Assembly (NCBI GenBank): GCA_964524795.1
Contig: CAZGEH010000016.1
Coordinates: forward strand, 6,889-70,888
Source of the DNA: an uncultured Acidobacteriota bacterium
GTDB lineage: Bacteria > Acidobacteriota > UBA6911 > RPQK01 > JAPXNP01
DNA length: 64,000 bases
Direction of reading: 5' to 3'
The stretch's first letter is position 1, and the number at the start of each line of letters is the position of its first letter. The position numbers and the translations under genes were made by a program. Below, in pieces: positions 42,444 through 45,844 of the stretch. The notes under the pieces are model-generated. The model did no database searches, was not told where the DNA came from, and worked only from the letters and a program-made list of their open reading frames with translations.

Positions 42444-42971
42444 ATGGGACTGCTGGACTTCCTCGGCCTCTCCAGGAGGTCGGAGCCTGCAGCCGACGGT
42501 GACGCGGAGAGCATCCGCCGCATTGCCCGCCGCCTCGACGAGATGGATCCCCGCCAGGCCCGCTACCTGGCCGCCTTCGCCTACCTGCTGGGCCGGGTCG
42601 CCAACGCGGACTCCGCCATCAGCGAGCTGGAGTCCTCCCGCATGGAGGAGCTGGTGGAGGAAAAGGGACATCTTACCCGCGAACAGGCGGTGATGACGGT
42701 GGAGATGGCGAAGCGACAGAACCGGCTGTTCGGCCACGTGGAAAACTTTCTGGTGACCCGCGAATTCAACGAACTGTCCAGCCGTGAGCAGCGGCTGGAA
42801 CTCCTGGACTGCCTGTTTTCGGTCTGCGCGGCCGACCGCAGCATCACCGCTGTGGAGGATCGCGAGATCCGGCAGATCGCCAGTGAGCTGCTGCTGGATC
42901 ACCGGGATTTCATCGACGTGCGTTCCCGATACCGGGAGCACCTGGAGGTGCTGCGCAAGCTCGACGAGTGA
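42444..42971 (+). CDS. TerB-family protein
   Basis: LLGRVANADSAISELE...LLDCLFSVCAADRSIT..E...IRQIA..L. Confidence 0.8.
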   Translation: MGLLDFLGLSRRSEPAADGDAESIRRIARRLDEMDPRQARYLAAFAYLLGRVANADSAISELESSRMEELVEEKGHLTREQAVMTVEMAKRQNRLFGHVENFLVTREFNELSSREQRLELLDCLFSVCAADRSITAVEDREIRQIASELLLDHRDFIDVRSRYREHLEVLRKLDE

Positions 42972-42978
42972 GGGACTT

Positions 42979-43131
42979 TTAATTTCGAGGCGGCCTTTCG
43001 GAAGGCTGATCCGGGTGCGGAACCTCGCACCTTGGACTCACTCAGGTGGGAACTCCCAGCCGGGGCAACACCCATGCCTGCAGGATCAGCCAGCCGGCTA
43101 CAAACAGAATGATCAGCAGTGCATCCCACAT
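42979..43131 (-). CDS. Candidate 50-aa single-pass membrane selenoprotein (Sec at TGA 43044-43042)
   Basis: MWDALLIILFVAGWLILQAWVLPRLGVPT-(TGA)-VSPRCEVPHPDQPSERPPRN-TAA; SECIS-like hairpin 10 nt after the TGA. Alternative reading is a 29-aa peptide. Confidence 0.65.
43014..43031 (-). promoter_or_regulatory. Putative bacterial SECIS element of the microprotein
   Basis: Minus strand GGTGCG-AGGTTC-CGCACC, perfect 6-bp stem with GG in the loop; possible lower stem GTCC/GGAT. Confidence 0.65.
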
Positions 43132-43227
43132 ATCGGCGCTGATGGCGGCAGCCCGGACCGCTCCGGGCCGCCGCCTGCTGATGATATCATCCCGGCAGAT
43201 TTTTCCCGACTGGAGGAGGGATTGCGT

Positions 43228-43749
43228 ATGCGGTGGCTGAACTGGACTCTTTCCGCTTTTGCTTTTCCGGCACTGGCGCTCGGCGCCGCCCCGGACAAGG
43301 GGAGCCCGGCTCCCGACTTCGAATTGCAGGGTTCCGACGGCCGGGTCCACCGGCTGAATGATTATATTGGACGCCAGCCCGTGGTACTGGCCTGGTTCCC
43401 CAAGGCTTTCACCGGCGGCTGAACCGCCGAGTGCAAGTCGCTGCGTGACAGCGGCCAGGAACTCAAAGCTTTCGATGTTGCCTACTTTGCGGTCAGCGTG
43501 GACGACGCCGACACGAACCGGCGGTTTGCCGAATCCCTCGATCTCGATTACCCCATCCTGAGCGACCCGGACAAGTCCGTGGCCAAAGCATACGGAGTCT
43601 TGCATGAATCGGGCAATTTCGCGCAGCGGTGGACGTTCTTCATCGACCGCGCGGGAGTGATCGCCCACATCGACAGGGAGGTTAAGCCCGCCACCGCCGG
43701 ACAGGATCTGGTTCAGCGGCTGGAGGAGCTGAAGTTCCCGAAACGTTGA
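43228..43749 (+). CDS. Selenocysteine-containing peroxiredoxin (AhpC/TSA, BCP-like) with signal peptide
   Basis: GSPAPDFELQG...LAWFPKAFTGG-(TGA 43420-43422)-TAECKSLRD...YPILSDP...QRWTFFID; the TGA occupies the peroxidatic Cys position and the frame continues to 43749. Confidence 0.88.
43437..43455 (+). promoter_or_regulatory. Putative bacterial SECIS element of the peroxiredoxin
   Basis: GTCGCTG-CGTGA-CAGCGGC stem-loop starting 14 nt after the TGA; possible lower stem GAGT (43429-43432)/ACTC (43461-43464). Confidence 0.6.
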
Positions 43750-43777: not shown

Positions 43778-45844
43778 ATGAGCACTGTGTGGATTCCGGC
43801 AGCCATGGGGTTGGTCTGTCTGGGTGCGGTCCAGGCGGCACCCACCTGGGATACCGTTCTTTACGGGGCGTCCTATTACCACGAGTACATGCCGTATGAA
43901 CGGCTCGAGGAGGACGTCCGGCTGATGGAGGAAGCGGGCTTGACGGTGGTGCGCCTGGGGGAATCCACCTGGAGCAGTTGGGAGCCCCGGGAAGGCCAGT
44001 TCGAATTTGCCTGGATGGATCGCATCATCGACCGCCTGCACCAGGCGGGGATCAAGGTCATCCTGGGCACCCCCACCTACTCCATCCCCCCCTGGCTCTA
44101 CCGAAAACACCCCGAGATCCTTGTCACCCACCTCAAAGGAGACAAGGCCTGGTACGGCCCCCGCCAGAACATGGACATCACCCATCCCACCTACCTCTTC
44201 TACGCCGAAAGGGTGATCCGCCAGGTGGTTGGGCACTACCGGAACCACCCGGCGGTCATCGGTTACCAGGTCGACAACGAGACGGGCTCCTACGGGACGG
44301 CGGGGCGCAATGTCCAGTTGAGCTTCGTCGATTGCCTCAAGCGCAAGTTCGGCAGCGTTTCCCGCCTGAACGAGATCTGGGGCTTTGTCTACTGGGGGCA
44401 GCTTGTCAACGACTGGGACGAGCTGCCTCCCCGCGACGGAATCCTCAACCCAGGCTACAAGCTGGAGTGGGAACGCCATCAGCGCCAACTGGTCACCGAC
44501 TTTCTGGCCTGGCAGGCCCGAATCGTCAACGAATACCGGCGCCCGGACCAGTTCATCACCCACAACTTCGTGGGCGGCGTCCGGACCGGCATCGACCAGC
44601 CGGCCATCGCCCGCCATCTGGATGTCGCCGCGGTCAATCCCTACCACCCGGTACAGGACGATCTGGATGGCGAATCCATCCACCTCTCGGGCGACCTTTG
44701 CCGATCACTGAAACGGCAGAACTACCTGGTGACGGAGACCAACGCCCAGACCATCGGGTGGGATTCCAGGCAACAGTTCCCTCCTTACGACGGGCAACTC
44801 CGCCTGAACGTGTATTCCCACATCGCAGCCGGCGCCAACCTGGTGGCCTACTGGCACTGGCACTCGCTGCACTACGGGCAGGAGACCTACTGGAAGGGGG
44901 TCCTCTCCCACGATCTCCAGCCCAGCCGGGCTTACCGGGAGGTTGCCCGTATCGCCCAGGAGCTGAAGCGATTCGGTCCCCGGCTGGTCAACCTGCAGCG
45001 CCGTAACGACGTGGCCATTTTGTACAGCATCGATTCCTTTCACGGAATCGAGTTCATGCCGTTCGACGACCGCGTAAACTACATGACCGTCCTCCATCAG
45101 TTGTACCGGACGTTGTACCGGCTCAACGTGGGCGTCGATTTCATCTTCCCGGACACCGAAGACCTGTCCCCCTACAAGCTGATCGTGGTGCCGCCCCTTT
45201 ACATTGCCGACGACGCTCTGCTGGAGCGGCTGGCGGCCTACGTCCGGAACGGCGGGAGGCTTGTCATGTCCTTCAAGAGCGGCTTCTGCAACGAGTTCAG
45301 CACCGTGCGCTGGACTCTGGCGCCGGGACCTTTGCGGGAAGCGGCGGGCTTCAGCTACCAGGAGTTCTCCAACCTGAAGCGGCCGCTGGCGCTGGCCGGA
45401 GATCCCTTCGGCGTGGGCGAGGGAAACCAGGTTTCGGTGTGGGCGGAGTTTCTGGTTCCCGACACTGCCGAAGTGGTGGCCCGGTACGACCATCCGTTTT
45501 TCGGCCGTTTCGCGGCCATCACCCGAAATCGCTACGGCAGCGGAACCTTCACATACCAGGGCACCTTTCTCTCGGATGAACTGCAGCGGGCGGTCCTGCT
45601 CCAGGAGCTGGAAGCTGCGGGGCTGCGCGGCCCGGACCAGGACCTGCCGCCGCGGGTAGCCGTCCGCCACGGGCGCCTGCAGGACGGATCGCCGGTACAC
45701 GTGTACCTGAACTATACGGCCCAGGAACAAACATTCCCCTACAGTGGGGGTCCAGGAACCGAGCTGCTCAGCGGGCGACCGGTGGCCGCCGCAGCAACAA
45801 TCTCGCTGGCGCCGTGGGAGGTGGCGGTCATTGTCGGGGGGTAG
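43778..45844 (+). CDS. Beta-galactosidase, GH42 family
   Basis: YGASYYHEY, RLGESTWSSWEP.EG.F, YQVDNE (acid/base), VTETNA (nucleophile), GQETYWKG. Confidence 0.88.
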   Translation: MSTVWIPAAMGLVCLGAVQAAPTWDTVLYGASYYHEYMPYERLEEDVRLMEEAGLTVVRLGESTWSSWEPREGQFEFAWMDRIIDRLHQAGIKVILGTPTYSIPPWLYRKHPEILVTHLKGDKAWYGPRQNMDITHPTYLFYAERVIRQVVGHYRNHPAVIGYQVDNETGSYGTAGRNVQLSFVDCLKRKFGSVSRLNEIWGFVYWGQLVNDWDELPPRDGILNPGYKLEWERHQRQLVTDFLAWQARIVNEYRRPDQFITHNFVGGVRTGIDQPAIARHLDVAAVNPYHPVQDDLDGESIHLSGDLCRSLKRQNYLVTETNAQTIGWDSRQQFPPYDGQLRLNVYSHIAAGANLVAYWHWHSLHYGQETYWKGVLSHDLQPSRAYREVARIAQELKRFGPRLVNLQRRNDVAILYSIDSFHGIEFMPFDDRVNYMTVLHQLYRTLYRLNVGVDFIFPDTEDLSPYKLIVVPPLYIADDALLERLAAYVRNGGRLVMSFKSGFCNEFSTVRWTLAPGPLREAAGFSYQEFSNLKRPLALAGDPFGVGEGNQVSVWAEFLVPDTAEVVARYDHPFFGRFAAITRNRYGSGTFTYQGTFLSDELQRAVLLQELEAAGLRGPDQDLPPRVAVRHGRLQDGSPVHVYLNYTAQEQTFPYSGGPGTELLSGRPVAAAATISLAPWEVAVIVGG

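Follow-up and report, generated by a model that had tools for sequence, protein, structure and literature searches.

The regulator YgaV of E. coli is a sulfide-responsive homologue of SqrR and BigR (PMC9774250), and YgaP is an inner-membrane rhodanese that has a cytoplasmic domain (PMC3551814). Coenzyme A (CoA)-disulfide-reductase-rhodanese enzymes are NADH-dependent persulfide reductases (PMC7969121). Among selenoproteins, a peroxiredoxin family carrying selenocysteine (Sec, U) in a PxxxTxxU motif has been verified experimentally, with PrxU of Eubacterium acidaminophilum as an example (PMC13188914), and the Tso neighbourhood contains TsoA, a 'LULAXC motif selenoprotein' (NF045695), TsoB, a rhodanese/DsbD-like selenoprotein, and TsoR, an ArsR-type regulator (table of PMC13188914, NCBIfam names). 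In this work, we analysed two head-to-head genes with an internal TGA codon in a 64,000-nucleotide stretch of DNA from an uncultured Acidobacteriota bacterium (contig CAZGEH010000016.1, positions 6,889 to 70,888; hereafter the window). The plus-strand gene encodes a peroxiredoxin, and the minus-strand gene encodes a small membrane protein, which we refer to as the microprotein.

Comparison with related loci indicates that both head-to-head genes are almost certainly selenoprotein genes. The Sec-peroxiredoxin brings nothing new; the microprotein does. We consider it reasonably probable, taking the statement as a whole, that these are two independent Sec genes and that the microprotein is a redox peptide of reactive-sulfur stress at the cytoplasmic face of the membrane.

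Recoding of the two TGA codons

Microprotein loci came from GTDB, scanned with a single genome for each species (36 loci), and from JGI metagenomes (80 loci). In all 116 readable loci, the window included, the core W..LQAWVLPRxGVxT was followed by TGA, and TAA, TAG or a Cys codon was found at this position in none of them, whereas the true terminal stops of the gene varied (64 TGA, 9 TAA and 5 TAG). In all 78 distinct loci, the frame past the TGA ran on without a stop for 17 codons or more; over that distance, the other two frames were interrupted in 68% and 31% of loci. Codons before the TGA were invariant at positions 1 and 2 and free at position 3, which is a wobble pattern, and wobble-type variation was also seen past the TGA at codons +3, +5, +10 and +11. 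A cysteine at U+5 was present in 80 of the 91 distinct sequences and was invariant among the aligned Cys forms described below. An alternative code reading TGA as Trp or Gly was ruled out, since these loci end the gene with TGA more often than with TAA or TAG.

In the model of the bacterial selenocysteine insertion sequence (bSECIS), a stem-loop carries a G in the first two loop positions, and its loop lies 16-37 nt from the UGA. Comparison across loci with an explicit hairpin finder revealed a hairpin of 5-9 bp in all 37 microprotein loci examined, with the loop beginning 19-27 nt after the U of the UGA, and all 37 agreed with the bSECIS stem-loop. The loops were mostly AGUU, GGUC or AGGUUC. 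Among 19 distinct hairpins, compensatory changes occurred at all six stem positions, as in GGGCCG/CGGCCC, GCGCCG/CGGCGC, GGUGCG/CGCACC and GCCUGA/UCGGGC. At the sequence level, the microprotein has all the marks of a bacterial selenoprotein.

For the peroxiredoxin, searched with U written as C, the Pfam AhpC-TSA profile (PF00578) spanned the TGA unbroken over residues 25-147 (118.4 bits against a cut-off of 26, E = 2.4e-34). The TGA occupies the peroxidatic position of the PxxxTxxC/U motif, here P-K-A-F-T-G-G-U, and the second Cys stands at U+4 (UTAEC), compared with U+5 in the microprotein. The closest solved structures in the PDB were the BCP homologue 3DRN and Mycobacterium tuberculosis Rv2238c/AhpE. 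The protein fell below the cut-off of every NCBIfam equivalog, the best being the PRK09437 thiol peroxidase (82 bits against 140), and it scored 49 bits against the NCBIfam PrxU model (NF040737), whose cut-off is 270. Two metagenome relatives (L037 and L038), with peroxiredoxins 84% identical to that of the window, keep both the TGA and the hairpin; the hairpin sequence is identical in both and thus offers no covariation. Residues 1 to about 20 (MRWLNWTLSAFAFPALALG/A) read as a Sec-type signal-peptide-like segment, and because of this N-terminus the peroxiredoxin probably resides outside the cytoplasm. Public gene calls (Ga0484859_0000306 from a JGI freshwater metagenome; L118 6599-7306) split the peroxiredoxin into fragments of 64 and 83 amino acids (aa). 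The plus-strand gene encodes a real, probably exported Sec-peroxiredoxin of an already known class of selenoprotein. An earlier sequence-only reading of the locus had taken both TGA-containing genes for selenoprotein genes, and this claim is borne out by the Pfam match across the peroxiredoxin TGA and by the conserved TGA, frame and hairpin of the microprotein.

The microprotein family and its gene neighbourhoods

A single-sequence protein search returned only the truncated self match of the microprotein, and the homologues came from a profile search. In 5.8 billion proteins, the profile gave 797 matches, nearly all of them 28-46-aa 'hypothetical proteins' ending at the TGA, together with a few singleton variants having Cys, Arg or Trp at the U codon, in which the frame reads on. 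The public calls on the window contig likewise give the microprotein as an open reading frame (ORF) of 29 aa. Public protein sets thus hold about 800 truncated 'hypothetical' ORFs of this family, and selenoproteome counts for Planctomycetota and related phyla are too low. Sec forms were found in Planctomycetota, Myxococcota, Acidobacteriota and other phyla, many of them in soil and freshwater Planctomycetota. Contigs labelled Nitrosopumilus, Chitinophaga and Candidatus Kuenenia (L009, L033, L028 and L036; GC 50-57%) carry very Planctomycetota-like loci and are probably mis-binned in their metagenome-assembled genomes.

A large sister family, numbering 1269 cluster representatives at E<=1e-3, emerged from an exhaustive profile search with Cys forms. 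By consensus, its members have a membrane helix and then LNRWVLPxFG(V/I)xTC-MSGAC, with C-x4-C where the Sec forms have U-x4-C. The Cys variants P0002 and P0004 likewise carry Cys at the position of the UGA. In P0004 (L130 919-1122), which is of Planctomycete type, TGC replaces TGA, the SECIS hairpin is intact and the adjoining ygaP is truncated to 95 aa; by its sequence, this locus looks like a recent Sec-to-Cys conversion. A 29-aa ORF near TauE in the same contig was checked as a second microprotein and rejected.

No significant match was found in Pfam-A (2025) for 35 Sec and 10 Cys members, and none in NCBIfam release 20 (June 2026, which holds recent selenoprotein models) for 36 Sec and 10 Cys forms; the matches to these libraries were at chance level, the best at E of about 0.03-0.3. 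A PDB search with the microprotein gave no match whatever, none of the 119 families tabulated in the 2026 prokaryotic selenoprotein review (PMC13188914) resembles it, and its motif strings were not found in a full-text literature search. Resemblances to CcoS, the FeoB-associated peptide, MerT/MerF and DUF2892 were unsupported by profile searches. The family is widespread and apparently uncatalogued, the Tso selenoproteins (Haft & Tolstoy 2025) being set apart by names and models only. It appears to be a new family of a known kind, the SECIS-dependent redox selenoproteins of bacteria.

The peptide itself consists of one membrane helix followed by LQAWVLPRLGVPT-U-VSPRC, with the U-x4-C about seven residues past the helix. 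Its earlier description as a membrane-anchored U-x4-C peptide holds. Residues W14, L17-R24, G26 and U30 are invariant. The start lies 28-29 codons before the U, usually with a GGAGG ribosome-binding site across the family. An AlphaFold model of the Cys variant P0002 placed the helix at residues 4-23 and left the tail disordered. The flank charges (family means) were 0.03 for K+R and 0.94 for D+E on the N-terminal side and 2.06 for K+R on the C-terminal side. Because of the positive-inside rule and this basic C-terminal flank, the tail is predicted to be cytoplasmic, and the microprotein is probably a single-pass protein with its N-terminus outside and U-x4-C inside. The tail motif 'GPSSAP' of the family is the SECIS hairpin at the nucleic-acid level, while the C-terminal '(D/E)ER(R/K)SP' is GAAAGGAG...ccATGA, namely the ribosome-binding site plus ATG of the gene that follows. 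Since the tail motifs are better explained by nucleic-acid signals, the functional peptide would essentially be the helix plus PRxGVxT-U-x4-C.

Neighbouring genes were identified with tblastn of defined queries as well as by ORF calls in high-GC loci. About half of the loci share a fixed operon encoding an ArsR regulator, the microprotein, a YgaP-type membrane rhodanese, a CoA-disulfide-reductase-rhodanese and often a methyltransferase; the third of these enzymes is a CoA-disulfide-reductase-like flavoprotein whose rhodanese domain is C-terminal. Of the 100 loci whose flanks are long enough, 54 have the ArsR gene at -500 to -180, in the orientation of the microprotein gene; its product matches HTH_20 and HTH_5, has BigR as its best specific NCBIfam match and is 32% identical to E. 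coli YgaV. A rhodanese + YgaP-like_TM gene begins at +86 to +128 in 47 loci, and its product shares 36% identity with E. coli YgaP across the full length. In L007, L011, L015, L016, L020, L023, L027 and others, the ygaP ATG overlaps the terminal TGA of the microprotein gene (ccATGA, about +87 to +120), and the ygaP ribosome-binding site GAAAGGAG sits within the last codons of the microprotein. The same ATGA overlap was seen between a Cys-form microprotein (L122 4195-4235) and a stand-alone YgaP-like_TM gene. As arranged in these sequences, the microprotein and ygaP are translationally coupled. In Planctomycete operons, S-adenosylmethionine-dependent methyltransferases of about 210-330 aa are encoded just downstream of the CoA-disulfide-reductase-rhodanese (L011 8368-9027 and four other neighbour clusters), with weak scores against arsenite-methyltransferase and selenoprotein-methyltransferase models.

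The Cys forms occur in comparable settings: beside a thioredoxin and a sulfide:quinone-reductase-like flavoprotein gene; in a BigR-type operon of ArsR, microprotein, Lactamase_B-Rhodanese (persulfide dioxygenase-rhodanese), two Sulf_transp genes and TauE; and with DUF302, YgaP_TM and TauE. In three lineages, represented by L024 (+110 to +445), L002 (-430 to -96) and L063 (-700 to -317), the immediate neighbour of the Sec microprotein gene encodes a WCGPC thioredoxin without a signal peptide, and the Cys-form representatives P0207 and P0218 are fusions with a TrxA-type thioredoxin (WCGPC or WCSPC). Microprotein relatives thus often adjoin redox genes, thioredoxin included, as the redox assignment of the earlier reading would lead one to expect. 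Other contexts comprised ECF sigma/zf-HC2 genes, seen in eight Sec loci and in a single Cys locus, a heavy-metal P-type ATPase gene together with one for an NADPH oxidoreductase, and RND efflux genes. Very probably, the conserved partners of the microprotein are cytoplasmic sulfur and thiol-redox genes and not the peroxiredoxin.

Proposed role and competing explanations

Most likely, the microprotein is tethered to the membrane and serves, on the inner side, as a selenol/thiol redox peptide under reactive-sulfur stress. In the mechanism we propose, the tethered selenolate at the inner leaflet would attack a soft electrophile such as the sulfane sulfur of a persulfide or polysulfide; Cys+5 would resolve the adduct to a selenenylsulfide; and a thioredoxin or the rhodanese/persulfide-reductase system would then re-reduce it. 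This specific reactive-sulfur chemistry is put forward tentatively, at somewhat below even chances. More tentative still is the extended proposal that this unrecognised membrane selenoprotein family is the missing partner or substrate of YgaP rhodaneses and of CoA-disulfide-reductase-rhodanese, recycled by thioredoxin, with ygaP of Planctomycetota coupled to Sec decoding. Under the extended proposal, Sec forms would predominate within their clade, and at 50-70 residues the members would be very small for selenoproteins. If true, the coupling of ygaP translation to Sec decoding would tie reactive-sulfur defence to selenium supply in Planctomycetota. The reactive-sulfur operon context of the family is unusual and informative: the close, translationally coupled association with YgaP-type rhodaneses and persulfide reductases offers a testable handle both on the role of the YgaP membrane domain and on why some bacteria spend selenium on defence against reactive-sulfur or thiol stress.

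Several observations limit this interpretation or weigh against it. A SECIS-like hairpin by the same criteria follows 61 of the 1480 TGA triplets in the window (4.1%), which makes a hairpin taken alone weak evidence of recoding, and whole-segment folds around both UGAs were not significantly better than those of shuffled sequences (z = -1.6 and -0.3). Because the folds resemble the shuffles and the background is 4.1%, the hairpins alone carry no weight and the case rests on the comparison among loci. Neither selA, selB, selD nor tRNA-Sec was seen in the 64-kb window, where ARAGORN reported no tRNA, and the window microprotein has no obvious Shine-Dalgarno sequence. The window also lacks any ArsR, YgaP, CoA-disulfide-reductase or ECF sigma gene, and the reactive-sulfur context is carried over from relatives that are only 40-65% identical. 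The topology is predicted, and the chemistry and the reactive-sulfur link are inferred; conservation of the tail is largely that of nucleic-acid signals, with protein-level information confined to about 35 residues. Finally, the ECF sigma/zf-HC2, P-type ATPase and RND neighbours, and TerB in the window, suggest a broader stress role, possibly one involving metals or metalloids.

This last point leads to an unlikely alternative in which the family, instead of handling reactive sulfur, would mainly bind or sense soft metals, metalloids or electrophiles (Hg, Cd, Te, organotin), its membrane selenol chelating the toxicant or passing it to efflux or reduction. The TerB gene adjoins the microprotein gene in the window, heavy-metal P-type ATPase genes lie upstream in the group of L028, L033, L035 and L036, RND/CusB-like efflux genes stand beside one Cys form, and several operons hold methyltransferase genes. 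The ArsR/SmtB regulator also scores against the CmtR and TsoR metalloregulator models, and many selenoproteins are linked to metals according to the 2026 review (PMC13188914). However, sulfur-transfer and persulfide enzymes dominate among the partners and show the tightest coupling (YgaP, CoA-disulfide-reductase-rhodanese, persulfide dioxygenase-rhodanese, sulfide:quinone reductase and TauE), and the closest specific NCBIfam match of the regulator is BigR.

We give a distinctly lower chance to the microprotein gene being a regulatory upstream ORF, in which the efficiency of Sec decoding, and with it the selenium supply, would gate translation of the overlapping ygaP while the peptide is secondary. 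Such gating could coexist with a redox role of the peptide, and the ccATGA overlap with its internal ribosome-binding site is conserved in Planctomycetota and in one Cys-form locus. Yet 11 positions of the peptide are invariant and it includes a membrane helix, many loci, including the window, have no coupled downstream gene, and the Cys forms, which are unable to sense selenium, keep the same architecture; the thioredoxin fusions also imply a functional peptide.

The sequence-only reading had suggested either that the microprotein and the exported Sec-peroxiredoxin are redox partners in a possible envelope system or that their genes are co-regulated by selenium. As a model of the first kind, a periplasmic U/C tail would serve as the reductant or relay for the peroxiredoxin, and we regard this pairing as improbable. 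The coordinates of the reading are correct: the starts are 97 nt apart (43131 and 43228) and share one divergent region, with 96 bp between them. This region holds a perfect 12-bp palindrome, GATGATATCATC, at 43180-43191, a candidate operator or perhaps two divergent -10 elements that overlap. Each of the two proteins has a Cys close to its U, and an exported peroxiredoxin needs a reductant. In the window, the TerB gene converges on the microprotein gene and the Sec-peroxiredoxin gene diverges from it. Besides the window, the layout of TerB, microprotein and peroxiredoxin occurs only in L037 and L038, which are closely related to the window organism (80% identity in the microprotein, 84% in the peroxiredoxin). 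Both conserve the palindrome together with the peroxiredoxin-side half of the region; on the side of the microprotein start, the sequence differs. Given the conserved palindrome, co-regulation of the two genes from the shared region is plausible. No RNA-seq run was found to contain the window.

Nevertheless, among the 115 other loci a peroxiredoxin adjoins the microprotein only in L037 and L038, that is, in the lineage of the window itself; in the L004/L048 lineage one lies 2 kb away, and the remaining 111 loci have none. The flank charges predict a cytoplasmic tail as against a peroxiredoxin with a signal-peptide-like N-terminus, which, both being predictions, would place the two proteins in different compartments, an outcome that the sequence-only reading had itself named as speaking against a partnership. 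The recurrent partners elsewhere are cytoplasmic or face the cytoplasm (signal-less thioredoxins, the NADH-dependent reductase and the rhodanese domain of YgaP), and the fusions are with a TrxA-type thioredoxin. As far as the compared loci tell, the adjacency is a local arrangement with no sign of a conserved functional pair, and the proposed envelope pair is not supported, a redox peptide with a cytoplasmic-face tail being the likelier reading. It is scarcely credible that translation merely terminates at the UGA to leave a peptide of 29 residues, with the hairpin as a terminator or chance structure: public gene callers annotate the gene so and such hairpins have the chance background given above, but the invariant TGA among varying terminal stops, the always open frame, the wobble pattern and Cys+5 conserved past the TGA, an extended ORF ending exactly at the ATG of the next gene, sense-codon homologues that read through and a hairpin without a U-tract all speak against it.

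Locus layout and comparison with described systems

The features of the locus are collected in Table 1.

Table 1 Coordinates of the microprotein and peroxiredoxin genes and adjoining features in the window.
Feature	Position	Strand	Description and basis
Microprotein gene	42979..43131	-	50 codons, MWDALLIILFVAGWLILQAWVLPRLGVPT-U-VSPRCEVPHPDQPSERPPRN; translation and 116-locus family
Microprotein start and stop codons	ATG 43131-43129; TAA 42981-42979	-	
Microprotein UGA, read as Sec, residue 30	43042..43044	-	3 codon positions invariant in 91 distinct sequences
Microprotein Cys35, partner in U-x4-C	43027..43029	-	Cys at U+5 in 80 of 91 distinct sequences
Microprotein SECIS-like hairpin	43014..43031	-	GGUGCG-AGGUUC-CGCACC; fold, begins 10 nt past UGA
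Microprotein predicted single transmembrane helix, about residues 4-23	43063..43122	-	Hydrophobic stretch; AlphaFold of Cys variant P0002
Divergent intergenic region, 96 bp	43132..43227	none	Contains palindrome GATGATATCATC
Sec-peroxiredoxin gene, BCP/PrxQ type	43228..43749	+	173 residues; Pfam AhpC-TSA, E = 2.4e-34
Peroxiredoxin start and terminal codons	ATG 43228; TGA 43747-43749	+	Start preceded by GGAGGAGG
Peroxiredoxin UGA, read as Sec, peroxidatic position	43420..43422	+	PKAFTGG-U-TAEC; PxxxTxxU motif
Peroxiredoxin SECIS-like hairpin	43437..43455	+	GUCGCUG-CGUGA-CAGCGGC; fold, 14 nt past UGA
TerB-domain gene (context only)	42444..42971	+	Pfam TerB, E = 7e-16; convergent with microprotein, 8 nt between stops

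A scan for consensus promoters and terminators found nothing, with no sigma-70 consensus in the 96-bp intergenic region, and Rfam at gathering thresholds gave no match in the window. Between the stops of TerB and the microprotein gene, within the last codons of the latter, lies a GC hairpin, GGCCTTTCGGAAGGCT (42992-43007, stem GCCTT/AAGGC). It has no U-tract and is not kept in L037 or L038, and it may be a weak bidirectional terminator. On the other side, a gene for a GH42 beta-galactosidase with a signal peptide (43778-45844) starts 29 nt past the peroxiredoxin stop with its own GGAGG, and the two may be co-transcribed.

In overall shape, the microprotein recalls the FeoB-associated Cys-rich protein and CcoS/FixS, which have a short N-terminus, one helix and a Cys tail, and some of whose genes adjoin P-type ATPase genes. 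Its core W..LQAWVLPRxGVxT(U/C) is distinct, and the 35 Sec and 10 Cys members searched matched none of these families in Pfam.

The window peroxiredoxin has the AhpC-TSA signature, the peroxidatic U and the downstream bacterial-type SECIS hairpin in common with Sec-peroxiredoxins such as PrxU of Eubacterium acidaminophilum. Unlike PrxU, it falls in the BCP/PrxQ/AhpE-like branch, begins with a signal-peptide-like segment and has its Cys at U+4.

The Tso neighbourhood, compared by name only, is alike in outline, with an ArsR-type regulator, a short U...C protein and a membrane rhodanese-type protein. The Planctomycete ArsR matched the TsoR model weakly (35 bits, cut-off 115), and the TsoA model NF045695 matched no microprotein, in Sec or Cys form, at E<=1 to 10. 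The two systems differ in motif, L-U-L-A-x-C in TsoA as against T-U-x4-C in the microprotein, and in the rhodanese partner, which for the microprotein is YgaP-like and without Sec.

The E. coli ygaV-ygaP and BigR/SqrR operons provide the other comparison. In the literature searched, no small Sec or Cys membrane peptide is described as a component of these operons, and in E. coli, ygaV and ygaP are separated by a 9-nt gap without a microprotein. What they have in common is the ArsR-type regulator gene with a YgaP-like gene, between which about half of the homologous loci place the microprotein; genes for a CoA-disulfide-reductase-rhodanese or a persulfide dioxygenase-rhodanese, Sulf_transp and TauE follow downstream.

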